Notes under the pieces: generated by a model
The model's input: only the letters and a program-made list of their open reading frames with translations
What the model was told of the DNA's origin: nothing
Databases searched by the model: none
Program-made: the position numbers and the translations under genes
Shown here: positions 48,179 through 62,445 of the stretch, piece by piece
Position numbering within the stretch: position 1 is the first letter of the stretch
Layout of the letters: each line of letters starts with the position of its first letter
Assembly (NCBI GenBank): GCA_034669905.1
Contig: JAXMOL010000007.1
Coordinates: forward strand, 128,970 to 192,969
Length of the DNA: 64,000 nucleotides
Reading direction: 5' to 3'
DNA from: Candidatus Hydrogenedentota bacterium
GTDB lineage: Bacteria > Hydrogenedentota > Hydrogenedentia > Hydrogenedentales > JAEUWI01

Positions 48179-49315
48179 ATGTCCATACGCCGTTTTCTTG
48201 TTACCATCACCCTGCTCGCCCTTTGCGCCGTCGGGACCGCCCGCGCAGACGAAGCCCTCACCCAGGCGGAGGAACAACGGACCGATGCCTATGCCCTCCA
48301 GCTGGAAGACTATCTGAGTGAATTGCTGGTGGAGGGCTATGATGCCCGGGCCGACGCCGCCTGGAACCGGGACTACACCAGCGAGGCGGCCTTCCTCCAG
48401 AGCGTCGCACCCAACCGGGAGCGGTGGCGTGACCTCCTCAGTCCCTTGCCCCTGGAGGCAACCGGCCCGCTGGAATCGACCCCCTACCAACCCCTCGCCG
48501 AGCTACAGGCCCAATGGTTGCGCGTGCCCCTCGGCGGACTCTACGCCGAGGCCCTACTCGTGGTGCCCACCACGGGCGAAGGCCCCTTCCCCCTCGTCAT
48601 CGCCCAGCACGGCATCGGCAGCTACCCCGAACTCATCTTTGGCCTCAACGACAAGAGCGGCAACTACCACGCCTATGGCAGCGAGCTGGTGAAAGCCGGC
48701 TTTGCCGTCCTCGCGCCCCTGAACCTCCGGAGCATGGCCCGGCGCAACCGCGTCGAACGGCTTTGCCGCCTCGCCGACACCACCCTGCCCGGCATTGAAT
48801 TCACCCGTGTGCAGCGCCTCCTCGACGAAGTGCTTCAGGACCCCCGCATCGACGCCGACCGCGTGGGCATGTGGGGCCTCTCCCTCGGCGGCCTGGCCAC
48901 CATGTTTTGGACGCCCCTCGAACCCCGCATCAAGGCCAGCGTAGTCGCCGGCTGGTTTAACCACCGCCGCAACAAAATGGTGCACACCGACAAGCGCTAC
49001 TCCTGCTTCCTCGACACCACCGAAGAACACGCCTTCTTTCGCGGTTGGCTCACCGAATTTACCGACCACGACGTGGTCAGCCTTATCTGTCCCCGACCCC
49101 TCCTCATCCAGACCGGAAAGAAAGATGGCATCGCCTGGTGGCCCATGGTGGAAGAAGAGTTCGCCATCGCCAAAACCCACTATGAAAAGCTCGGAATCGC
49201 CGAGCGCGCCGAGCTTGACCTCCAGGATGTGGGACACGAGGCCCACGTGGAAAGCGGCGTACGTTTTCTACGCCACTGGCTGGTCGAAAATTTTACGGCG
49301 TTGGACAAAAAATAG
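48179..49315 (+). CDS. Secreted alpha/beta hydrolase (dienelactone hydrolase/acetylxylan esterase-like)
   Basis: Signal peptide. GLSLGG nucleophile elbow. Confidence 0.72.
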   Translation: MSIRRFLVTITLLALCAVGTARADEALTQAEEQRTDAYALQLEDYLSELLVEGYDARADAAWNRDYTSEAAFLQSVAPNRERWRDLLSPLPLEATGPLESTPYQPLAELQAQWLRVPLGGLYAEALLVVPTTGEGPFPLVIAQHGIGSYPELIFGLNDKSGNYHAYGSELVKAGFAVLAPLNLRSMARRNRVERLCRLADTTLPGIEFTRVQRLLDEVLQDPRIDADRVGMWGLSLGGLATMFWTPLEPRIKASVVAGWFNHRRNKMVHTDKRYSCFLDTTEEHAFFRGWLTEFTDHDVVSLICPRPLLIQTGKKDGIAWWPMVEEEFAIAKTHYEKLGIAERAELDLQDVGHEAHVESGVRFLRHWLVENFTALDKK

Positions 49316-49334
49316 CGATTCCAACTTGACATCA

Positions 49335-49362
49335 CTGCCGATACTTTAATAAACTACGCGTC
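49335..49362 (+). promoter_or_regulatory. putative sigma-70 promoter for the tRNA pair
   Basis: Perfect TTGACA followed by a 15-16 nt spacer and TAATAA. Confidence 0.35.
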
Positions 49363-49367
49363 CCGGT

Positions 49368-49443
<76 letters not shown>

Positions 49444-49460
49444 TTATTTTACCTCTTTGC

Positions 49461-49536
49461 GCTGGAATAGCTCAGTCGGTAGAGCGCTTCACTCGTAATG
49501 AAGAGGTCCGGGGTTCGATTCCCCGTTCCAGCCCCA
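49461..49536 (+). tRNA. tRNA-Thr (CGU)
   Basis: Acceptor GCTGGAA/TTCCAGC. Anticodon loop CTCGTAA. GGTTCGATTCC T-arm. Encoded CCA. Confidence 0.88.
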
Positions 49537-50824
49537 GTAAATGCCTGCCACGAAACGACTTACATAGATAGTTGTTTTGTGGTTTTTATTTGTCTGGCCT
49601 TCGTTATCGCCCCGTTATCTTTGATTTCCGGGATTAGCCCCCTTCCTGAACTATTCCTCGCGGGTGTTTTTGCCATCTTCGACTGCTGACTTGTCTCTCT
49701 ATTCCCGACTGATTCCCTTTCCCTCCTTGGGGTGCCTGAAGGGCTTCATTCCGTCCGCTCCACTTCCTGAGACTTCCCGAGTCGACCGCCACATTCGGCC
49801 ACGAGCCGGGCAGTCATTTACCCTTCCTGGGTCGTCACGGTAGATCGTCGACCACTCCTCCTGCGGTCGTATTGAACGACAGACTATCAATCGCCCGGAT
49901 ACCGACGCAGAGAATCACCATGGCACGACTACCTGGGTCGCCTGTAAGCCCCTACAGTGAAATGTCTTAGGTATGGTTGTTTAGGTCGAGAAAACGCGTT
50001 ACGGGGCATCCTGGGGCTTCTGAGAGGGTGTGAGTTCCATTGTCAGGCGGTCTATTGCTGCGGGATTGTCTCGGGCACTTGGGTTGTGTGCTCTTGCACA
50101 TCTGCCGGAACGGATTGATGGCCCTGAAGTGGAACATGCATTTCGGAAACGTTCCTTCTTGGCCTGGACAACGCCTGGGCCCCGGAATTCATCCCAGAGA
50201 GCCTCCGTCCACAGGCCCGAACTGCCCCATGTTGCCCGTTTTTCACTGGCTGCGTGCCCCAAATGCCCGTAATTACCCTGATTTTTCGTTCCAGAGACTC
50301 CGATTTCCTTCCTGCACGTCCAATGGCACGCTTTGCCATCCTTCGAAGGGCTCAAACGGGGGTGGAGAGGAAGGCGAACCAACACAAACCGACATTTCTG
50401 AGAGAAAGGAAGCTCGCTACGCTCACGCAAGATTGGTCCAACGGGACGCTGCGGACTGGCTGCGCCAATCCTCGCTTTAGGAGATCAACCTACCGCTGCG
50501 GCACGTCTCCGCTTCGCTGCGACACGCCTCGCCTTCGGCAGGGTTAAAAGGTGTCAACAAGTTGACCGGGGGTAGGGGGGGCAGCTGCGCTTACCGGCAT
50601 AGTCAGCACCTGGATTACAAAATCTGGCAATTTTTAAGATGGGGTTTGCTGCTCGGGGTCTTCCAGTACGGAAACAGTGTGCGCACACGGGGAGTCCGTG
50701 TGCGCTCAAAGTAGCCACACCTTCCACTCCTCCTGTGGCATTCCGGCTGCGTTGACAGTCTGGGGCGGAACCCTTATCATGGCGCGATATTCTTGATTCA
50801 GGTTACGACGTAAAGGGGGAATCG

Positions 50825-51592
50825 ATGAGCGACCACAGCGAAGCACCAACAAACGAGGAACACAGTCCGTGGTTTACACAACTCTGGGTTGTCTTGGTCA
50901 TTATCGCTGTCGTCCTATTTATTCAGTGGGGTGCATGGTGTTGGATTGAGGGGCGATATCCAACAGGCGAAGAACGTGCATTCTTTGGGGATATGTTCGG
51001 GGCCGTGAACACGCTGTTCTCGGGGCTTGCCTTCTCCATTCTTGCTTGGACCATGCTCTTGCAGCGGGAAGAACTGAAGCTCCAGCGTCGTGAGCTCCAG
51101 GAAAATCGCACCGAGTTGAAACGGACGGCAGATTCCCAACGCGACATGTTGAAAATCGCAAAACAGGAACAGGCAGACCGAGAGGCCCGAGAGTACAGGG
51201 CGGCCACACTACTCTTAAGTCGTTGGAAGAGAGATGGCAATACGCTCAATAGCGATGGCGGCTTCGAGAGCTGGCGTTTTTCCGCAACGAACCTCGGCGA
51301 GGTAGTGTCCAACGTCGAACTCTCGATGGTCAGTATGTCCGGAGTTGGGAACTATGAATTCGATTGTGACCTGATAGTACCGAAAGGGGGGAAATTGGAC
51401 CTGTTGATTTGGGTGGAGCACAGCAACTCTTCGAAAGGGATTGAGAATTGGCTCTCACTGGAGTTTTTGATTAACTACGTGGATGGCAATGGCCGCAATC
51501 GGCAGCAAAAGTACGTATTGAATACTGGAGAAGAATCAATATCCTGTACACATCTGGGAATTGATGAAGAAGAAGACGTCTTTTCCGGGTAA
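50825..51592 (+). CDS. hypothetical 2-TM coiled-coil membrane protein (paralog A)
   Basis: TM1, then GDMFGAVNTLFSGLAFSIL TM2, then a coiled coil and a C-terminal beta-rich domain. About 50% GC. Confidence 0.6.
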   Translation: MSDHSEAPTNEEHSPWFTQLWVVLVIIAVVLFIQWGAWCWIEGRYPTGEERAFFGDMFGAVNTLFSGLAFSILAWTMLLQREELKLQRRELQENRTELKRTADSQRDMLKIAKQEQADREAREYRAATLLLSRWKRDGNTLNSDGGFESWRFSATNLGEVVSNVELSMVSMSGVGNYEFDCDLIVPKGGKLDLLIWVEHSNSSKGIENWLSLEFLINYVDGNGRNRQQKYVLNTGEESISCTHLGIDEEEDVFSG

Positions 51593-51660
51593 CACCCAGC
51601 TTGTGAAAGCTCTAGAGAAGACGTTGAAACAACGTTTCCGACCAAGGGGAAGAATTAACT

Positions 51661-52362
51661 ATGAAATCGAATGGGCAGCATGAGGGATTCACGCTAACCT
51701 CCAAAAAATTGGACGGATACATCGCAGCAATTGTTACGATTTGGCTCGTCGCCACGATTGGAATACCGGTCTTTTCCTGGTTGTCGCCAGACATTGAGCT
51801 TGGAGATTTCGCGTTGCTGGGGGATAGTCTTGGCACCATTAACGCCTTTTTCTCTGCGCTGGCCGTGATTGTGGTGGTGCTGAGCCTTCGACTTCAACAA
51901 AGGGAGATCGAAGAGACCTTGGCGTTGATGCGCGCCGAGCGTTCGGAAGAGAAGGACCGCCAGTTTCGTGCGGCAACACCAATCTTGATCTCCGGGAACT
52001 TTAGACATTTGAGTGAAACGGGAGGTGGTTCCGCAATGCACTGCCTGTTGACCAATAATGGCCAGACAATATTTGATCCGACGATGACCGTTTCGAACGC
52101 CGAGGACCTAGAGCATATATCGGTAGAAACCAAGGCAGATACGATCTTGCCTAACAATTCCCATATCCAGGTTATCGTAAAGCCGATGGTAGCGTCTCAA
52201 AGCCTTCCGAAACACCTCACGATTTGTTTGACCTTGCAATGTTTTGATATCGATGGGCGCAAGCGAACGCTGCACTTTGAAGGTCGGCCCGTCGTTACGG
52301 AAAAGCTGAAGCTGACTGCCTACGATTTTCTTCCTGACTGGGGTGGTGATCGAAGCGCTTAG
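51661..52362 (+). CDS. hypothetical 2-TM coiled-coil membrane protein (paralog B)
   Basis: Same architecture and shared motifs (GDSLGTINAFFSALAV, LQQREIEE, RQFRAAT) as paralog A. Confidence 0.6.
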   Translation: MKSNGQHEGFTLTSKKLDGYIAAIVTIWLVATIGIPVFSWLSPDIELGDFALLGDSLGTINAFFSALAVIVVVLSLRLQQREIEETLALMRAERSEEKDRQFRAATPILISGNFRHLSETGGGSAMHCLLTNNGQTIFDPTMTVSNAEDLEHISVETKADTILPNNSHIQVIVKPMVASQSLPKHLTICLTLQCFDIDGRKRTLHFEGRPVVTEKLKLTAYDFLPDWGGDRSA

Positions 52363-52593
52363 TCCCCATGTAAACGACCAATCCACGGGCGTAAGCAGGG
52401 GCTATCGGTGGCTGTCTTTTCCCCCGCAGGCGATGGTATCATCGCAGGCGGTTTTTATATTCGGTTGGCCGGTGTCTTTCTGGCATGTTTGTATCGGGTG
52501 AGGCGAGGGTGAGGGTGTGTGCAAGGCCTGTGCCTCTTGCGTGGGGTGGATACCGGCGGCGTGTCGGGTGTGGGCCGGTTTTTGGGAGAGCGC

Positions 52594-54147
52594 ATGAATA
52601 CGAATGGTAATGAAATTGAATCCCGCCTGTGGGCGGCGGCGGATGAGCTGCGGGCGAATTCGAAGCTGAAGTCGTCGGAGTATGCCGCCCCGGTGTTGGG
52701 GCTGGTCTTCCTCCGCTTTGCAGACCACAAGTTCCAGGTGGCGGCGAAGGAATTGGAAGGCCAAGGCGGCGGACGGCGCAAGATTGGCCCGACGGATTAT
52801 CAGGCTCAGGGCGTGCTCTATCTGCCCGAGGCGGCCCGCTTTTCCACCCTCATCCAGATGCCCGAAGGCGGCAACATCGGCGCGGCCATCAACGACGCCA
52901 TGCGCGCCATTGAGACGGAGAATTCCGACCTCAAAGATGTCCTCCCCAAGACCTACAACCGCTTTGAGAACACCCTCCTCAAAGAACTCCTCAAGACCAT
53001 GAACTCCATCCCCATGGACATCCAGGGGGACGCCTTCGGTAAGATTTATGAGTATTTCCTGGGCCACTTCGCCATGAGCGAGGGCCAGAAGGGCGGCGAG
53101 TTCTTCACGCCCACGGCCATCGTCCAGTTGATTGTCGCCATCATCGAGCCCTTCCACGGGCGCATCTACGACCCCGCCTGCGGCTCCGGCGGCATGTTTG
53201 TCCAGTGCGCACGCTTCGTCACCGAGCACCAGCAGAACCCCAGCGCGGAATTGAGCGTCTTCGGCCAGGAAAAGACGGACGAAACCGTCCGCCTCGGCAA
53301 GATGAACCTCGCCGTCCACGGCCTCAGCGGCGACATCCGCGAGGGCAACACCTACTACGAAGACCTCCACCAGGCCCCCGGCAAGTTCGACTTCGTCATG
53401 GCCAATCCCCCGTTCAACGTGGACCGGGTGGACAAAGACCGCCTTAAGGACGACCCCCGCTTCCCCTTTGGTATGCCGCGCACGGACAATGCCAACTACC
53501 TCTGGATTCAGATGTTCTACAGTGCCCTGAGCGCCACGGGCCGGGCGGGCTTTGTCATGGCCAATTCCGCCTCCGATGCGCGCGGTTCCGAGCTGGACAT
53601 CCGCCAGCAGTTGATCCAGGCCCGCGCCGTCGATGTGATGGTAGCCGTGGGCTCAAATTTCTTCTACACCGTCACCCTGCCCTGCACCCTGTGGTTCTTC
53701 GACAAGGGCAAGGCGAAGACGCCCCGCGCCGACCAGGTCCTCTTCCTCGATGCCCGCCACCTCTACCGGCAGATCGACCGCGCCCACCGCGACTGGACAC
53801 CCGACCAAATCGAATACCTCGCCAACATCGCCCGCCTCTATCGCGGCGAGGCCGTGGAAAACCTCCACGGCGGCGCCGACTTGTTGGAAGAGCACTTTGG
53901 CAAAAATCCGAAATACACCGACGTGCCCGGCCTCTGTAAGGTCGCCACGCTGGACGAAATCGAGGCCCAGGGCTGGAGCCTCAACCCCGGTCGCTACGTG
54001 GGCGTCACCGCCCGTGAGGAGGACGACTTCGACTTTCTGGAGCGCCTGGAGGAGCAGAACGAGGAGCTGGAACTTCTAAACGTCGAGGCGCGGGAACTGG
54101 AAGAGCGGATCGCGGAAAATGTGGTGCAGTTGTTGGAGGCGGACTGA
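52594..54147 (+). CDS. hsdM: Type I restriction-modification methyltransferase subunit
   Basis: HsdM_N-like start ([13 protein letters not shown]). N6-MTase NPPF motif (MANPPFN). The ATG at 52594 with a GGGAGAG Shine-Dalgarno is preferred over the track ATG at 52519. Confidence 0.9.
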
Positions 54148-55970
54148 TGACGAGAGAAGTCCAATGGACACGTAAAACGGTGCTTGACTTGCTAGAAAAC
54201 GTTATCGATTACCGTGGAAGGACGCCACCAAAATCGGATACTGGCATACCATGTCTCTCAGCCGCCAACGTCAAGGGGGGCGTCGTCACAATAAAGGACA
54301 AGTTTGTTTCCCAAGAAGTATACGAGAAATGGACAACGAGGGGTTATGTTCGTCCGGGAGATGTTTTAATAACGACTGAAGCCCCGGTAGCTGAGGTCGC
54401 TCTGCTACCTGGGGATCAGACTTATCTCATTACCCGTCGAGTTATGGCCCTCCAAGTCAACCGTTCTGTGGCAGACAACAAGTTTCTCATGTACAGTCTG
54501 CTGCTGGACGATAACAAGAAACAGCTTGAGGGACTCTCCCACGGAGCCACGGTGCCAAGGTTATTCAAGGAAGACATCTTGGACTTCAAGTTACTGGTTC
54601 CGCCCCTGGCGACGCAGCGGAAGATCGCGGCGGTCCTCTCGGCCTACGACGACTTGATCGAGAACAACCTGCGGCGGATCAAGATTCTGGAGGCGATGGC
54701 GCAGAACCTCTACCGCGAGTGGTTCGTCAAGTTCCGCTTCCCCGGCCACCAGCACGCCCGCTTCGTGGACTCCCCCCTGGGGCCCATTCCCGAGGGCTGG
54801 GAGGTGAAGACGCTGGGGGAAATCGCGACTATAACTATGGGCCTTTCCCCGAAAGGTGATACCTATAACAACGAAGGCGACGGTACGCCGTTGGTAAATG
54901 GTCCAGTTGAATTCGGCGAACGATTTACGAAACGGGTCAAATGGACAACTTCACCAAAGAAACTTTGTAGTGAAGGTGACCTTGTTGTTTGTGTAAGAGG
55001 ATCGACAACGGGAAAATACGTAAAGAGCGATGGCGTGTATTGTTTGGGTCGTGGTGTTTGCGGACTAAGCAGTGAATATCAGTGTTTCCTAGACCAACTC
55101 TTCGAGAGCGAATTGTATACTCTCCTCGGCATGACAAGTGGTTCTACGTTTCCGAGCTGGACCGGACCACAATTAAAATCTCATAAGGTGCTTGTCCCTC
55201 ATGTAAATTTGCGTGCAGAATTCGACAAAGCAATTCAACCTATGAACGCAGCGGTCTTCAAATACACGCGGAAAAATGCGGTCCTCCGCCAAACCCGCGA
55301 TCTCCTCTTGCCCAAGCTCATCTCTGGCGAACTGGACGTATCCGAGCTGAACATCACCGTCCCCGAGGAGCTGGCCGCCAGCCCCGCCCCTTTGGAAGAC
55401 ACCGGTAGCCCGGCGCAGGTAACGGCACCCAAAGCGAGCCCCGCCCCCGCCCCGAAGGCCGCCGAGGAACCGGAAGCCTACAGAGAAGGCGACACGGAAG
55501 CCCCCACGGCCCCGCGCCCCATTGAGGACTGGGACACCGACGACGTGATGGCGGCCTTCCGCCAGGCCGCCCGGAAGACGGGCCAGACGGACCGCGCCAC
55601 CCTCCTCAAGGCCGTGTCCCGTGAACTGGGCTATGGCCGACTGGGTCCGAAGATGAAGACCGTATTGAAAGGGCACCTCAAGGCCGCCATCCGCCGTCAC
55701 ATCATCGGCACCGACGGCGGTGCCACGGTGTGGCCCGAAACGGTCACCATGGACGAATTCGAGCGCGACGAGCTCGTGGCCACCTTCCGTTCCGTCATGA
55801 AGAAGGGCCCCCGCTACGACCGGGAGGACATCCACCGCGCCGTCGCCAACTACCTCGGCTTCCGCCGCCTCACCGAAAGCGTAAAAGCCCCCATCAAGTC
55901 CGCCATCAACGGAGCGATAAGGCGGGGTGTGCTGGGTTATGAGGGAGATGTGTTGTGGCGGGAAGAGTGA
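54147..55970 (+). CDS. hsdS: Type I R-M specificity subunit with ~200-aa C-terminal extension
   Basis: Two target-recognition domains flank conserved LPPL..Q..I...L and central repeat helices. Residues from about 405 form a Pro/Ala-rich linker plus a basic helical domain of unknown function. Confidence 0.85.
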   Translation: MTREVQWTRKTVLDLLENVIDYRGRTPPKSDTGIPCLSAANVKGGVVTIKDKFVSQEVYEKWTTRGYVRPGDVLITTEAPVAEVALLPGDQTYLITRRVMALQVNRSVADNKFLMYSLLLDDNKKQLEGLSHGATVPRLFKEDILDFKLLVPPLATQRKIAAVLSAYDDLIENNLRRIKILEAMAQNLYREWFVKFRFPGHQHARFVDSPLGPIPEGWEVKTLGEIATITMGLSPKGDTYNNEGDGTPLVNGPVEFGERFTKRVKWTTSPKKLCSEGDLVVCVRGSTTGKYVKSDGVYCLGRGVCGLSSEYQCFLDQLFESELYTLLGMTSGSTFPSWTGPQLKSHKVLVPHVNLRAEFDKAIQPMNAAVFKYTRKNAVLRQTRDLLLPKLISGELDVSELNITVPEELAASPAPLEDTGSPAQVTAPKASPAPAPKAAEEPEAYREGDTEAPTAPRPIEDWDTDDVMAAFRQAARKTGQTDRATLLKAVSRELGYGRLGPKMKTVLKGHLKAAIRRHIIGTDGGATVWPETVTMDEFERDELVATFRSVMKKGPRYDREDIHRAVANYLGFRRLTESVKAPIKSAINGAIRRGVLGYEGDVLWREE

Positions 55971-56131
55971 TGTGGCGACTCTTGCTCTTTCAATACCTAG
56001 AGCCGTTAGCCAATTAACCCTAGAAATGAGAGTAGAGTTCAATGCTCAAGGGAAAGTGTAAAGAGTCTCGGAGTAGGCTACGTGAAGACACTCCGGATGC
56101 GACAGGCTCAGTTTAGGCCCAAAACGATCTT

Positions 56132-56920
56132 ATGTACGGAGGCACAATGGTTCCATTTGAAGATGACAATACAAAGGCCTATGTTTATCTCTTGCGAATC
56201 GAAATTGCCCTACGAGAGCTTCTTCGAGCTTCGCTCGAATCCGAATTCGGGCAATCCTGGAGAAAAAGGCTCCCTGGCGAACTGTTGAAAAAGATCAAAT
56301 CTTCGCAGTCAGAAGAGCATCGTCCCCAGTTTGATTTCGTCCGTTTGGGGCCGCTCTACTACTTGACATTTGGAGAATTACTTATCCTTCTTAAACAAAA
56401 ATCGGGGCAATCCGTAGCTCAACGTTTGGGTGGAGATGGAATCCTTAAGCAACTAGAATGTGTCTTCTCGCCACGCAATGCGATTTGCCACTCGCGACCT
56501 GTATCGTCGGTAGGGTTACAAGCAATAAGCTTGCTCTATGTTGAGATAGAGACAGCACTTTCAAAGGAGGTCTTGGTCCAGCTCGTATCGCAACCAGATA
56601 CGGGGCTCACTCAAGTCGATGTTGCCAAGGGCCTCGTTCCCGCCCTCAAAAACTTCATGGCCGATTTGCCAAATCTACCGTCCACACTCCCGGTTCCTGA
56701 AGCGTTTGTAACTGCGAAGAATCAGTTCTGGTGGGCGGACGATGAGCTTGCTGGATTCGATCGTTCACGAGTCGAAGCCGTGATTGGCCTGGTTCGTGAC
56801 TACAACAACCTTCCTGTTGGTGTTGGATCTGCTGGAACACGACTCACATTCTGCGAGCGGAATGCCCTCAAAGAACGGATTAAAGACGCAATAGCCGAGT
56901 TGGAGAGTACGACACTATGA
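56132..56920 (+). CDS. Swt1-like HEPN domain protein (predicted RNase)
   Basis: FGQSWRKRLPGELLKKIK...FGELLILLK...LKQLECVFSPRNAICHSRPV matches the Swt1-HEPN layout with an R-x4-H motif. About 48% GC. Confidence 0.6.
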   Translation: MYGGTMVPFEDDNTKAYVYLLRIEIALRELLRASLESEFGQSWRKRLPGELLKKIKSSQSEEHRPQFDFVRLGPLYYLTFGELLILLKQKSGQSVAQRLGGDGILKQLECVFSPRNAICHSRPVSSVGLQAISLLYVEIETALSKEVLVQLVSQPDTGLTQVDVAKGLVPALKNFMADLPNLPSTLPVPEAFVTAKNQFWWADDELAGFDRSRVEAVIGLVRDYNNLPVGVGSAGTRLTFCERNALKERIKDAIAELESTTL

Positions 56921-59196
56921 GTCAGCAAAAAAAACAAAAACTCCCTCCAAACCCATTCAAACTCAAACCAATCAGAAATCTTGAGGACTTGGCAGGGCGT
57001 TCACAGGAGCGAAAGAAGATACGATATTACCTAAATCTTACTGCCTCGGGGGATAGTCCGCACTTGGCCTTGATCGGGCAGAGAGGTGTGGGCAAGACGA
57101 GTTTACTCAACGGGGCAGAGTCTATCGCAAGAGAGTTGAAACTACATCCAGTACGCTTGGACATGAACGAGCTGAAGGCAGAATCTCCAGGGAGGTTTTG
57201 GCAGGACTTGTACCAGGGTTTGGCCTTGTCAATGGCCAAAGTAGGATGTTGGGGTGGTGAGCAGGGAAAACTCTATGGTGAACTCTTAAGAATGATTCAC
57301 TCTCGACAACCAGGAGATATCGAGAATGCAGTAATACAGATTCCGTACCTATTTTCATGCCACCAAGGAGACATAGACAGTTTTGAATGTCCGGATGCTC
57401 TCGTGGTCAACGATATTAATATCTGTTTAACGGAGTTGAAGACTAAAGGGTTTGCCGGCATCGCTTTGCTAATTGATGAAGCCGATTGCTTGGGTAAGAA
57501 CGTTGCGCTAATTCAGATGTTCCGTAATATCTTTCAAGCCGTCGAGGGCTGCTCTCTGGTCCTGGCGGGAACCGAGGCTGTGTTCCCGTCACTATCGGAA
57601 GTTTTTTCGCCGATTCCGCGACAGTTTCATCGAATTGATGTGAAGCCATTTGCCGACATGTCGGATACGATGGAACTAGCTACCAGACCTCTTCGGGAGG
57701 CGGACAGTCGAATTCTTCCAGATTTCGAGTCATGCAAAGAGTTACACGCGCTGTGCGGGGGGGCACCTGATGAAATCCAACTCTATTGCCATCACATGTA
57801 TCGTAGCGTAGAGGATGACTCCTCCGAGTCAATGACTCTGTCGCCACAGGTTTTTCGCGAAGTGCTTTGCGCGTACCGTGCGAACACTCCAGAAAACCTC
57901 GACTCAGTCCTAAACGCAATTGAACGATTGCCGGACAGACTGCTATTTCGCTCAAGGTGGGTGTCACGAAGGGAACTGACGCTTGAAGAGAATATTCAGG
58001 TTACAACGCTAATTGCCGAACTTGATGATAGTGAAGAACTACTAGAGGAAAAAAAGAAGCAAATTTCCGAAGAGATTTCCGAGGGGTATCAAATCCTTTT
58101 TAATGCTGGGATTACCAGTGCTAGCAACCGTATTCGGCTTGCGGGAACCCCCCTAACTTCGGGGTTCTGGAAGTCATTTGTTAAGGCGGAAAGAAATGCG
58201 AAGTGGTCTTGGAACGACAATTCCTTCGCAGAGAACTTGGAACGCATATTTGCTCGTGCGATAAACAAGACCTGCGGACAACTACCTATTATCAATATTC
58301 CCCAAAAGGATGATGCTATCAGGAAATTGGCCAAACTTCGCGAGGGAAAATCTGTCAGTGAGATTGATGATGCTTTTGGGGCGCTCCTATTCACTTGCCT
58401 TATCGCCCGAGAAACCAATGCTACAACGGCTGTTGACTTGGGCCTTGAAATGGAATCTTGCTTCGGTCGCCGAAACTTTGTGGTGCGATTACTTGAGACG
58501 AAGGGAACAAAACTCCAAAAGGACGCGGTCATCCGATGGCTAGATACTCGAAAGTCGATGCTTGACGACTACCGAATCTCTCTATCACTCACACAATTTG
58601 AGCATTGGACAGTTCCTACGAATGAAGAATTGCATAGACTCGGGAGACTTTCGGGACATCAGTTTTTTCTAGACGAATTCGGACCGTCAGAAATGGAGAT
58701 TGCGGTCGATAAGTTTGGGTCTGGAGACGTCCAAGGTTGTATCGATCTGTTCGAACGAATGCTTGCAGACAAGGAAGATCCCCACATCCGAAATAACTTG
58801 GCTTTCTGTCAAATAGTCACCGGGAATATTCAGGATGGACTAGAAAATGCCGACCGAGCACTTCAAGTCGATAATCTTCCACTTTTTGAATTGAATAAGG
58901 GAGTCGCAGAGATCCTTTTGGGCGATTCTGAGTCGGGGCTTGAATCTCTACGTCACGCACTTGAGCGACTCCGTTCGTTAGATGATCCGGACGCTTTCGA
59001 AGCTAGTTACAATATGGTTATTTCGGAGAATGGCGTCGAAGTAAGTTGTCATGAGAATCTGCCTGTTGACGCTGCGCTCCTACTAAATCTCTATCGAATT
59101 GGTGAGCTATCGGAATCAGAACTACAGGAGGAATTGAGCAGAAGGAATCCCGACAGTGTTTCTGATTGGATGGCCATCGTGCTCGGGCCTAAGTAG
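56917..59196 (+). CDS. AAA_16/STAND-type P-loop NTPase with C-terminal TPR-like repeats
   Basis: LAGRSQERKKIRYYL then Walker A GQRGVGKTS. Walker B ALLIDEADCL. C-terminal helical/TPR repeats. 4-nt overlap with the HEPN gene. About 47% GC. Confidence 0.7.
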   Translation: MSQQKKQKLPPNPFKLKPIRNLEDLAGRSQERKKIRYYLNLTASGDSPHLALIGQRGVGKTSLLNGAESIARELKLHPVRLDMNELKAESPGRFWQDLYQGLALSMAKVGCWGGEQGKLYGELLRMIHSRQPGDIENAVIQIPYLFSCHQGDIDSFECPDALVVNDINICLTELKTKGFAGIALLIDEADCLGKNVALIQMFRNIFQAVEGCSLVLAGTEAVFPSLSEVFSPIPRQFHRIDVKPFADMSDTMELATRPLREADSRILPDFESCKELHALCGGAPDEIQLYCHHMYRSVEDDSSESMTLSPQVFREVLCAYRANTPENLDSVLNAIERLPDRLLFRSRWVSRRELTLEENIQVTTLIAELDDSEELLEEKKKQISEEISEGYQILFNAGITSASNRIRLAGTPLTSGFWKSFVKAERNAKWSWNDNSFAENLERIFARAINKTCGQLPIINIPQKDDAIRKLAKLREGKSVSEIDDAFGALLFTCLIARETNATTAVDLGLEMESCFGRRNFVVRLLETKGTKLQKDAVIRWLDTRKSMLDDYRISLSLTQFEHWTVPTNEELHRLGRLSGHQFFLDEFGPSEMEIAVDKFGSGDVQGCIDLFERMLADKEDPHIRNNLAFCQIVTGNIQDGLENADRALQVDNLPLFELNKGVAEILLGDSESGLESLRHALERLRSLDDPDAFEASYNMVISENGVEVSCHENLPVDAALLLNLYRIGELSESELQEELSRRNPDSVSDWMAIVLGPK

Positions 59197-59223
59197 ACAA
59201 ACGATTCAAGGGCAGCATTCAAT

Positions 59224-62200
59224 ATGTCTTATACTTACAGCGAAGACGCCCTGGTGGAACAACCGGCGATTGCCCTGCTCGGGGAACTGGGTTGGGAGAC
59301 GATGAACGCCTATCAGGAGTTTGCCCATGGGGCGAGCGTGCTGGGCCGGGAAACCCGGAATGAAGTCATCCTGACACAACGGTTGCGTCCGGCGTTGGAG
59401 CAGTTAAACCCGGAGTTGCCCCCGGCGGCCATCGATGAAGCCGTGACGGCCCTGCAACGGGACCGCTCGCGCATGAGCCGGGTGGCGGCCAACAAGGAAA
59501 TTTACCACGCCCTCAAGAATGGGGTCCGTGTCACGGTTCCGGACCCCGAGGGGGACGGCGAGATGGTGGCCTTGGTGCGGGTGGTGGACTGGGACATCCC
59601 GGAAAACAATGACTTTCTGCTTTGCTCTCAACTTTGGGTCGCAGGCGAGATGTATACCCGTCGCCCGGACCTCGTGGGCTTCGTCAATGGCCTGCCCCTG
59701 CTCTTTATCGAGCTGAAGGCGGCGCACAAGGGGCTGGAATCGGCCTATAAGGGCAATCTGCGGGATTACAAGGACACTATCCCCCACCTCTTCTGGGCGA
59801 ACGCCCTGATTATCCTTTCCAACGGCAGCGAAAGCCGCCTGGGGAGTGTCTCGGCGGGTTGGGAACACTTTGCCGACTGGAAGAAGATTGGCAGCGAGGA
59901 AGAGACCGCGACGATTTCCCTGGAGACCATGTTGCGGGGAACCTGCGCGCCGGAGCGCTTTCTGGATATTGTGGAGAACTTCACCCTCTTCCAGGATGTG
60001 CCGGGCGGTCAGGTGAAGCTGGTCTCGAAGAACCACCAGTATCTCGGTGTGAACAGCGCCCTGGAAGCCTTGGCGAACGTGCAGGAGCGGGGCGGGCGTC
60101 TGGGCATATTCTGGCACACCCAAGGCAGCGGCAAGAGTGTGTCCATGGTCTTTTTTGCCCAGAAGGTACTCCGCCGGGTTCCCGGCAACTGGACCTTTGT
60201 CGTGGTGACCGACCGCAAGGAACTGGATACCCAGATTTACAAGAATTTCGTCTCGTCGGGCGTGGTCACCGAGGAAGGTGCCCAGGCCACGAGCAGCGCA
60301 GGCTTGCGGCAACTCCTCGCGGAAGACCACCGCTATGTCTTCACCCTGATTCATAAATTTCGGACGGAGCCGGGCACGGCGCACCCCGTGCTCTCTACGC
60401 GTAGCGATATTATCGTCATTGCCGACGAGGCCCACCGGAGCCAATATGACACGATGGCGCTGAACATGCGCACGGCGCTGCCCAATGCCGCCTTTCTGGC
60501 CTTCACCGGCACCCCCCTGATTGTGGGCGAGGAAAAGACGCGGGATGTCTTTGGGGACTATGTCAGCGTCTACGACTTCCGCCAGTCGGTGGAAGACCGG
60601 GCCACGGTTCCGCTGTATTACGAGAATCGCATTCCCGAGCTCCAGTTGGTGAATGAGCATATCAATGAAGACATGGAACGCCTGCTGGAAGACGCGGAGC
60701 TCGACGAGGAGCAGGAGAAGAAGCTGGAGCGGGAGTTTGCGCGGGAATATCACCTGATTACGCGGGACGAGCGTCTGGAGGCCGTGGCCAAGGACCTCGT
60801 GGACCACTTCATTGCGCGGGGATTCCAGGGCAAGGCCATGATGATCTGCATCGACAAGGCCACGGCGGTGCGGATGTATGACAAGGTACAGCGGGCGTGG
60901 GCGGAGCGGCTGGCGGAGGCGGAGGCCGATTTTGACGCGTGGTGTGAGCTGCCCGGCTACGTGATGGGCCCGGAGGAGGAGCCCCCCGAATTGCAGCATG
61001 AGCAGGCGCTGAAGGACCGGATACGTTCGCTCAAGGAGATCGACATGGCGGTGGTGGTGTCGCAGGCCCAGAATGAGATTCGGGATATGAAGGCGAAGGG
61101 GCTGGATATCCTCCCCCACCGGAAGCGCATGGTGGAGGATGACCTGGAAACGAAGTTCAAAGACCCGAAGGATGATCTCCAACTGGTTTTTGTCTGCGCC
61201 ATGTGGATAACGGGCTTTGACGTGCCGAGTTGTTCCACGCTCTATCTGGACAAGCCTATGCGGAACCACACGCTCATGCAGACGATAGCGCGGGCCAACC
61301 GCGTCTTTGCGGGCAAGGTCAACGGGTTGATTGTGGACTATGCGGGGGTGTTCCGAAACCTGGAGAAGGCCCTGGCCATCTATGGCGGAGGTGGTGCCAC
61401 GGAGGGCGGCGAGGACGCAGGTGGTGGGAATCCGGTGGCCGATAAGGGCGTGCTGGTCACGGCGCTGACAGAGGTGATTGCGGAGACCCGCGCCTTGTGC
61501 GAAGAACACGCGGTGGACCTTTTGGCCATCCATGAAGCCGAGGGCTTTGACCGTATCAAGTTAATGGAGGATGCTGTCGAGGCGCTGTTGGTAACTGAAG
61601 CTGTAAAGCGGCGCTACCTGGACCTTTCAAACGGCGTGAAACGGCTCTATAAGGCCATCTTGCCCGATGATTCGGCGGAGGCCTTCGCGGGGGATGTGTT
61701 TGCTATTCAATACGTCGCCGAAAAGATTCGGGCCAAGACCGAAGCGCCGGACATTTCGAGTGTGATGCAGGATGTGGAGGAGCTGCTGGACCAATCCATT
61801 GCCACGGAAGGCTATGTGATTCGCGAAGGCAAGGCGGACTACGGCGAAGAACACTGGATCGACCTGAGCAATGTGGACTTCGACGCGCTTGCTGCCCGGT
61901 TCAAAATCGGGCGCAAGCGAACGATGAGCGAGCAGCTCAAGGTAAGCGTCGCGCAGAAGGTTATCGACATGGTGCGGCAAAACCGGACCCGCATCGATTT
62001 CATGGAGCGTTTCCAGGCGATGATTGATGCCTACAACGCGGGCAGTCTGAATGTCGAAGAATTCTTTAGCCAGTTGGTGGCCTTTGCCCGGAGCCTGGAT
62101 GAGGAAGAACAACGGGGCGTAAGCGAAAACCTGACTGAAGAAGAACTGGTCATCTTTGACCTGTTGACGAAGCCTGCTATTGAGCTGTCGGAAAAGGAAC

Positions 62201-62445
62201 GGGAGAAGGTGCGGTCGGCGGCCCGGGAAATGCTGGAAACGCTCAAGGCGGGCAAGCTGGTCCTTGATTGGCGCAAGCGGCAACAATCACGGGCCGAAGT
62301 ACGCGTGGCCATTGAGACCGTACTGGATGCGCACCTGCCGAGAGCCTACACGCCGGAGCTTTTCGAGCAGAAAGCCACGGAAGTCTTTCAGCACGTCTAC
62401 GAAGCGTACTACGGGGCGGGGCGCGGTGTGTATTTTGGCGCGTAG
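59224..62445 (+). CDS. hsdR: Type I restriction endonuclease subunit
   Basis: HsdR_N (FIELKAAHKG). SF2 helicase motifs (WHTQGSGKS, DEAHRSQ). C-terminal DUF3387-like region. 1073 aa. The 709-aa antisense ORF 59404-61533 is an artefact. Confidence 0.92.
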   Translation: MSYTYSEDALVEQPAIALLGELGWETMNAYQEFAHGASVLGRETRNEVILTQRLRPALEQLNPELPPAAIDEAVTALQRDRSRMSRVAANKEIYHALKNGVRVTVPDPEGDGEMVALVRVVDWDIPENNDFLLCSQLWVAGEMYTRRPDLVGFVNGLPLLFIELKAAHKGLESAYKGNLRDYKDTIPHLFWANALIILSNGSESRLGSVSAGWEHFADWKKIGSEEETATISLETMLRGTCAPERFLDIVENFTLFQDVPGGQVKLVSKNHQYLGVNSALEALANVQERGGRLGIFWHTQGSGKSVSMVFFAQKVLRRVPGNWTFVVVTDRKELDTQIYKNFVSSGVVTEEGAQATSSAGLRQLLAEDHRYVFTLIHKFRTEPGTAHPVLSTRSDIIVIADEAHRSQYDTMALNMRTALPNAAFLAFTGTPLIVGEEKTRDVFGDYVSVYDFRQSVEDRATVPLYYENRIPELQLVNEHINEDMERLLEDAELDEEQEKKLEREFAREYHLITRDERLEAVAKDLVDHFIARGFQGKAMMICIDKATAVRMYDKVQRAWAERLAEAEADFDAWCELPGYVMGPEEEPPELQHEQALKDRIRSLKEIDMAVVVSQAQNEIRDMKAKGLDILPHRKRMVEDDLETKFKDPKDDLQLVFVCAMWITGFDVPSCSTLYLDKPMRNHTLMQTIARANRVFAGKVNGLIVDYAGVFRNLEKALAIYGGGGATEGGEDAGGGNPVADKGVLVTALTEVIAETRALCEEHAVDLLAIHEAEGFDRIKLMEDAVEALLVTEAVKRRYLDLSNGVKRLYKAILPDDSAEAFAGDVFAIQYVAEKIRAKTEAPDISSVMQDVEELLDQSIATEGYVIREGKADYGEEHWIDLSNVDFDALAARFKIGRKRTMSEQLKVSVAQKVIDMVRQNRTRIDFMERFQAMIDAYNAGSLNVEEFFSQLVAFARSLDEEEQRGVSENLTEEELVIFDLLTKPAIELSEKEREKVRSAAREMLETLKAGKLVLDWRKRQQSRAEVRVAIETVLDAHLPRAYTPELFEQKATEVFQHVYEAYYGAGRGVYFGA

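Follow-up and report, generated by a model that had tools for sequence, protein, structure and literature searches.

A pair of small membrane proteins with an AbiC-type N-terminal module and an Ig-like β-sandwich in a Hydrogenedentota bacterium

Introduction

Two adjacent genes for small membrane proteins, lying in low-GC DNA between a tRNA pair and a restriction-modification (R-M) locus, raise the question of what their products do and whether they do it as a pair. The genes, referred to here as A and B, were found in a stretch of 64,000 nucleotides from Candidatus Hydrogenedentota bacterium (assembly GCA_034669905.1, contig JAXMOL010000007.1, positions 128,970 to 192,969 of the forward strand). 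This whole stretch is called the window, and nucleotide positions are numbered within it. A first-pass annotation, made from the DNA sequence and its open reading frames (ORFs), had proposed that the products are abortive-infection effectors or a sensor/effector pair of no named family. Sequence comparison indicates that the N-terminal membrane module of A and B is clearly homologous to that of AbiC-type proteins. We put at about even the chances that A and B each work alone, as single-gene abortive-infection or exclusion factors on horizontally acquired DNA, within a modular family of small proteins of the inner membrane. What is new here is probably the union of an AbiC-type membrane module with an undescribed β-sandwich tail, not a new kind of system.

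Architecture of A and B

The two ORFs were found at exactly the annotated coordinates, on the same strand and 68 nt apart: gene A (50825-51592, +) encodes 255 aa and gene B (51661-52362, +) encodes 233 aa. The products are real but distant paralogs. They align at 23% identity over 211 aa (BLASTP, E 2e-12), and hidden Markov models (HMMs) of the N-terminal module and of the C-terminal domain each match both proteins with E values of 1e-25 to 1e-37. The region of the second transmembrane (TM) segment carries the motif GDMFGAVNTLFSGLA in A and GDSLGTINAFFSALA in B. The architecture described in the first-pass annotation, including this motif, is thus present in both proteins, and structural models agree with it.

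The models were AlphaFold2 monomers built with family alignments as input. Common to both is a TM1 helix, a TM2 helix that continues into a charged stalk, and an 8-9-stranded β-sandwich of ~120 residues. In A, TM1 occupies residues ~15-44 (modelled helix 15-44) and the TM2 motif FGDMFGAVNTLFSGLAF lies at 54-70, within a continuous helix (50-126) that forms the charged stalk to ~126; the Ig-like β-sandwich follows at ~130-246, with 8 strands at 130-246 (mean pLDDT 69). In B, TM1 occupies residues ~12-41 (modelled helix 12-41), the TM2 motif LGDSLGTINAFFSALAV lies at 53-69, the helix at 47-105 forms a stalk to ~105, and the β-sandwich spans ~109-220, with strands at 109-220 (mean pLDDT 72). The modelled stalk of B is therefore ~20 residues shorter than that of A. 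Hydropathy analysis placed the hydrophobic segments at 15-33 and 61-79 in A and at 21-39 and 60-78 in B. The stalks may form coiled coils, a label that derives solely from the long charged helix of a monomer model.

The distribution of charge predicts the topology. In A and B, the loop between the TM segments contains 0-2 Lys or Arg residues, as against 6-7 in the 25 residues that follow TM2. By the positive-inside rule, the N-terminus and the β-domain would thus be cytoplasmic, with a loop of ~20 residues facing outward.

The N-terminal membrane module

A large search with A matched ~590 proteins. A handful are full-length relatives of 31-46% identity (P0002-P0005, P0013, P0014). Hundreds are proteins of ~300 aa that belong to PF16872 (putAbiC) and match only the N-terminal third, at ~50% identity (phmmer E ~1e-16). 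When an A-type profile was aligned with a putAbiC-type profile using hhalign, residues 30-116 of A (50912..51172, +), which form a module of two TM segments and a juxtamembrane helix, matched residues 25-112 at the N-terminus of the putAbiC-type proteins (probability 99.9%, E 4.3e-31, 88 columns). The ~300-aa relatives score on the PADLOC models for AbiP (E 5e-20) and AbiC (E 2e-7). Knowledge of AbiC goes back to 1992.

The module runs from TM1 through a short acidic loop, predicted to face outward, to a highly conserved TM2 (G-D-x-F-G-x-x-N-x-L-F-S-G-L-A-F) and a charged helix with LQR-x-EL repeats. Almost all of the invariant positions, among them D56, N62, S66, Q80, and E83, map to TM2 and the juxtamembrane helix; such invariance is unusual for a mere membrane anchor. 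Like A and B, the PF16872 putAbiC/AbiC group has two TM helices, an FGDMFGAVN-LFSGLAF motif, and an LQR-EL helix, and its members are single-gene, partner-less, patchily distributed, and borne on plasmids or prophages.

The two groups differ at the C-terminus, where the PF16872 proteins carry the Pfam domain and A and B carry the β-sandwich instead. The PF16872 model (positions 5-78) falls in the C-terminal region of the ~300-aa relatives, at residues ~193/199-273, a stretch that has no counterpart in A or B. The same model (80 positions, gathering score 22 bits) gave no match to either protein at a cut-off as loose as E ≤ 1, and an HMM of the putAbiC C-terminal half matched neither protein.

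Weaker matches coincide precisely with the TM2 motif and the juxtamembrane helix: DUF6082 (PF19560), phrog_8999, and phrog_9267. DUF6082 scored 15.6 bits in A and 18.9 bits in B, over profile positions 3-52 of 163; in A, the match covers residues 53-111 and is centred on the TM2 motif. All DUF6082 matches (15.6-21.9 bits) lie below the gathering score of 26.7 bits. In the PHROGs collection, both proteins significantly matched phrog_8999 at the N-terminus (A residues 20-100, E 1.5e-6). These families are without known function and add no mechanism, and no literature was found on DUF6082, putAbiC, PF19560, or phrog_8999. The "Abi_C" of a Nat Commun 2026 paper was considered and set aside: it is the unrelated PF14355/AbiJ HEPN domain.

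A and B therefore share the AbiC-type membrane module, yet fall outside the formal definitions of putAbiC, of PADLOC AbiC and AbiP, and of DUF6082. The claim that the proteins belong to no named family holds insofar as neither is recognized by a Pfam or PADLOC model, but their N-terminal module links them to the AbiC/P-type group, DUF6082, and phrog_8999.

The β-domain subfamily

An exhaustive HMMER search with B of 1.84 billion representative sequences yielded 47 matches at E ≤ 1e-3 and just 6 at E ≤ 1e-10. A k-mer-limited homology search with B returned B itself only, and just 4 weak loci emerged when metagenome contigs were scanned for genes like B. The full-length B-like relatives (P0122, P0123, P0125, P0127-P0131) and the A-like proteins have the motifs RAAT-P, T-N-x-G, and V/Y-D-x-x-G-x-x-R in common, which indicates that the β-domain is a genuine conserved domain. 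The subfamily that carries it is rare and previously undescribed.

Fold searches of the PDB and BFVD returned generic Ig-like matches or uncharacterised proteins only. The likeness to adaptin appendage and GAE-type Ig-like sandwiches is one of generic fold: identities are 7-16%, confidence in the models is moderate, and no homology is implied.

Pairing of A and B

Several features of the locus bear on whether the genes work as a pair. A and B share a strand with 68 nt between them, and one promoter-like site precedes A. This candidate σ70-like promoter (50752..50780, +; TTGACA, 17 nt spacer, TATCAT; 11/12 matches) ends 45 nt before the start of A. It is the sole promoter-like match in 49500-52600, as a match to the consensus only, where shuffled sequence averages 1.7 matches. 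The GC content of the two genes, annotated as about 50%, was measured as 50.7% for A and 50.6% for B; the window averages 58.2%, below the 62% that the first-pass annotation had given for the genome, and the region upstream of the tRNAs averages 59.4%. The GC content at third codon positions (GC3) is 58.2% for A and 58.1% for B, compared to 69-84% in flanking native genes. Because these values are nearly identical in A and B and lower than in the flanks, the genes look foreign and acquired together.

One explanation is that A and B form an obligate two-component hetero-oligomer in which one protein senses and the other executes. The spacing, the promoter-like site, and the signs of co-acquisition agree with this proposal, as do the stalks, which differ by ~20 residues, and pairs found elsewhere. 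Adjacent and divergent module genes, 33-39% identical within each pair, occur in 3/40 viral contigs (L089 7938-9560, L122 7806-9849, and L100 5424-8891). Of the two L089 copies, only one has a putAbiC C-terminus. In addition, P0144 (358 aa) contains two 2-TM motif modules in one chain, with motifs at ~40-70 and ~222-281. This natural fusion hints that the module may act as a dimer.

We nevertheless consider an obligate pair unlikely. Both proteins have the same complete architecture, which argues against a division of labour. The β-domain gene is solo in all other loci with readable flanks (L001, L002, L003, L132, L136, L137), and the solo genes include the closest relatives of A (P0002, P0005, P0013) as well as those of B (P0122, P0129, P0131). 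More broadly, a second module gene was found within 8 kb in 0 of ~80 genome loci. The genes that adjoin P0005 and P0002 were examined as hidden paralogs and proved unrelated (E > 1). Finally, relatives at 40-46% identity, solo ones among them, exist separately for the A-like and for the B-like lineage, and the pair is thus not a recent in-situ duplication. A and B are a lineage-specific pair whose co-occurrence is not conserved, and the sensor/effector proposal of the first-pass annotation is not supported.

Distribution of the module

The wider module family was surveyed by a pattern scan with A-like sequences of one genome per species, 185,579 species in all. It yielded 529 confirmed module loci, or ~0.3% of the species genomes, in many phyla. 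Neighbours and tails were counted for the best 80 of the 529 loci, among which Bacteroidota are frequent. C-terminal types in these 80 were short tails of ≤100 aa (48), putAbiC (17), other long tails (13), and β-Ig (1). Scanning of 37 "other" tails identified 8 divergent putAbiC domains, 1 DUF4760, and 1 DUF6082, with the rest lacking a match; P0179 carries PF19560. An enzyme domain fused to the module was never recognised among the tails scanned. The neighbourhood is not conserved: in the best 80 loci, 832 neighbour proteins fell into 683 clusters, and the top family occurred in only 5 loci.

The module is also carried by mobile elements. It was found in 40 viral or prophage contigs, beside genes for methyltransferases, ParB-like and HNH proteins, integrases, and small terminase subunits rather than within lysis cassettes. 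Copies on plasmids bear the annotation "putative phage abortive infection protein". A tblastn search of cultured phage genomes with A gave no match.

Phage homologs bring up the possibility that A and B are holin- or spanin-like lysis proteins left by a prophage. Small size, two TM segments, and a coiled-coil-like helix would suit such a role. No endolysin or holin family appeared, however, among the 25 commonest PHROGs of 139 viral neighbours, a list in which methyltransferases, ParB-like proteins, small terminase subunits, integrases, and HNH endonucleases predominate. Most homologs come from chromosomal loci outside phages, and an Ig-like domain of 120 aa is not a holin feature. We regard a lysis function as very improbable.

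Evidence for and against a role in defence

An abortive-infection or exclusion role is the best supported reading, based on the analogy with AbiP and AbiC together with an accessory, partner-less, mobile-element-borne distribution. Mobile or defence markers were found within 8 kb in 8/9 informative annotated loci, this window with its tRNAs and type I R-M system included, a small sample with no background control. The contexts of the relatives were as follows: MmeI fragments, transposases, and DUF1016 (L001); integrase, capsid, and an excisionase-type HTH (HTH_17); an adjacent SieB-family gene and a LexA-like repressor (L003); Abi_alpha; resolvase, NikA, and UvrD; Abi_2; and CopG, resolvase, and integrase. 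These contexts suggest a possible enrichment around homologs. The abortive-infection proposal of the first-pass annotation is thus strengthened in part: PF16872/putAbiC proteins have a homologous N-terminal module, and close relatives lie near SieB, Abi_alpha, Abi_2, MmeI fragments, integrases, resolvases, and a capsid gene.

At L001 (8309-11208), in a metagenome-assembled genome of Hydrogenedentes, two short MmeI_C fragments flank the gene for P0002, which is A's closest homolog, together with an unrelated gene of 365 aa. The arrangement looks as if the two genes had been inserted into an MmeI-type R-M gene or had replaced its core.

Other observations weigh against a role in defence. In addition to the limited sample noted above, its ninth locus is an exception: housekeeping genes surround the gene for P0007, a close short-form relative, with RNase H on one side and MarC on the other. 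In 75 genome loci, mostly of short forms, the 142 immediate neighbours are predominantly metabolic or housekeeping genes, and roughly 10/142 have strong PADLOC matches, as estimated from a per-family table. PADLOC scans of A and B returned 0 families at E ≤ 1, including AbiC (PDLC02343) and AbiP (PDLC02351), and the close relatives P0002, P0005, and P0009 had no PADLOC match either. Scans of A and B against Pfam and NCBIfam returned only sub-threshold matches to DUF6082 and STM3941. The likeness to lactococcal AbiC is drawn via the PF16872 relatives, not from the founding AbiC sequence, and the mechanism of AbiC is itself unknown (PMC13064643). A tblastn search of plasmids with a putAbiC-type relative recovered no Lactococcus AbiC.

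These points bear on a second explanation, that A and B are non-defence membrane proteins with a general envelope or stress role whose location in an island is incidental. It is consistent with the prevalence of short forms (48/80 of the best genome loci) and with their housekeeping neighbours, which include SAICAR synthetase, DNA ligase, deformylase, and isocitrate dehydrogenase, as well as with the setting of P0007. It also accords with the commonest neighbour of the module gene, a gene for an MscS-type channel (~387 aa; PF00924) that adjoins it in 5 unrelated genomes (L020, L023, L066, L071, L083); this adjacency could be due to chance or could reflect a link to membrane stress. Many Bacteroidota short forms are indeed flanked by housekeeping genes, which for the wider family goes part of the way towards the counter-evidence that the first-pass annotation had named, homologs that are widespread housekeeping proteins away from mobile or defence settings, but these occurrences are non-syntenic and patchy. 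The lack of synteny across loci, the presence of the module in ~0.3% of species genomes and in phages and plasmids, and the occurrence of the β-domain subfamily solely in mobile or defence-type contexts all make a general cellular role improbable. The minority of neighbours that match defence models includes TIR/ThsB, Schlafen-AlbA_2, SduA, PD-T4-6, and PD-Lambda-2.

As a third explanation, A and B might be superinfection-exclusion or lysogenic-conversion proteins that act at the envelope, blocking DNA entry or masking a membrane component without cell suicide, and are possibly remnants of a degraded element by the tRNAs. Many exclusion proteins are small proteins with two TM segments, as A and B are. 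Viral contigs of prophage type commonly carry the module close to integrase and accessory genes, L003 has a SieB-family gene as its direct neighbour, and A and B themselves are near tRNAs and of low GC. Set against this, the charge distribution predicts a cytoplasmic β-domain, with only the ~20-residue loop facing outward. Neither an integrase nor an att repeat occurs in the window, nor does any other phage gene adjoin A or B. On balance, we consider this reading unlikely.

Comparison with known Abi systems and a possible mechanism

According to a 2026 FEMS review (PMC13064643), AbiC contains two TM helices as against one in AbiP, and the extramembrane domains of the two proteins can be superimposed. 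For AbiP to work, the TM segment and the nucleic-acid-binding domain are both required; its trigger is a phage major tail protein, which is needed for toxicity (PMC13064643). A and B have the homologous N-terminal membrane segment of the AbiC/P group, but not its shared α-helical extramembrane domain, their own being all-β in the AlphaFold2 models. The comparison with lactococcal AbiP is a functional analogy: a single, membrane-anchored protein with a cytoplasmic recognition or binding domain, as is predicted for A and B. AbiP has one TM segment and an α-helical nucleic-acid-binding domain, whereas A and B have two TM segments and an all-β domain, with no sequence match between them.

The family can be pictured as one conserved N-terminal module joined to C-terminal domains that can be swapped, with PF16872 putAbiC as its best-known branch; the AbiC-type proteins of that branch are related to AbiP. 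By analogy with AbiP, the cytoplasmic β-sandwich of A or B might recognise a phage-derived protein. The stalk would relay the signal to the conserved TM2 module, and this module could then disturb either the membrane itself or some conserved partner in it. With two diverged copies, more kinds of trigger would most likely be recognised; alternatively, the copies might assemble as a hetero-oligomer.

A bolder version of this proposal, which we put forward tentatively and consider appreciably less probable than the single-gene role itself, treats the module as an unrecognised, widespread membrane effector. Its role would be SLATT-like, with swappable cytoplasmic sensors each tuned to its own phage trigger. 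A and B would then be two sensors, possibly co-assembling, that feed one membrane output.

If the single-gene reading is correct, the conserved unit of the AbiC family would be the membrane module, not the Pfam-defined C-terminal domain. The module would have been reused with several C-terminal domains across many phyla and prophages, offering a route to dissect AbiC/P-type defence. As a search query, it would extend detection beyond the PF16872 and PADLOC models, which miss proteins of the A/B type. The locus itself is a modest finding: a rare domain variant in a lineage-specific pair beside a type I R-M locus, with no unusual genomic mechanism.

Genomic setting

Two tRNA genes lie upstream of A, tRNA-Phe(GAA) at 49368-49443 (+) and tRNA-Thr(CGT) at 49461-49536 (+). 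A and B had been described as directly downstream of this pair; the order is correct, but 1.29 kb of apparently non-coding DNA intervenes. This interval, 49537-50824, has a GC content of 55%, no convincing ORF, and no recognisable integrase remnant; it could be the decayed end of an element or a long leader. An Rfam scan of 49200-52600 matched only the two tRNAs. The tRNA pair is a possible integration landmark for the low-GC segment. The tRNA 3′ end has no second copy elsewhere in the window, and a search for island boundaries within the window, based on repeats of the tRNA 3′ end and on long direct repeats, yielded nothing significant.

Downstream of B, the R-M locus that had been annotated is a complete type I system (52519..62445, +) comprising hsdM, hsdS, two embedded low-GC genes, and hsdR. 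Its products are HsdM (52519-54147, +), HsdS (54147-55970, +), and HsdR (59224-62445, +). The linkage of such a locus to A/B-type genes is not conserved: HsdM-like neighbours were found in just 2 other loci (L024, L030) of 83.

HsdS has a C-terminal extension of ~200 aa (residues ~400-607) past its two target-recognition domains. The extension consists of a Pro/Ala-rich linker followed by two tandem repeats of ~66 aa (32% identity, E 3e-13). No Pfam family matches it, and coverage by the PADLOC Specificity_I models stops at about residue 400.

The two embedded genes lie between hsdS and hsdR at 56132-59196, have GC contents of 49% and 47%, and overlap by 4 nt at their start and stop codons. 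The first encodes a 262-aa product with a weak match to the PADLOC model PDC-M34B (E 1.4e-6). The second encodes a 759-aa product in which only an N-terminal P-loop region (AAA_16/BrxC-D-like) was matched. Together, they may be a defence cassette of two genes set inside the type I R-M operon.

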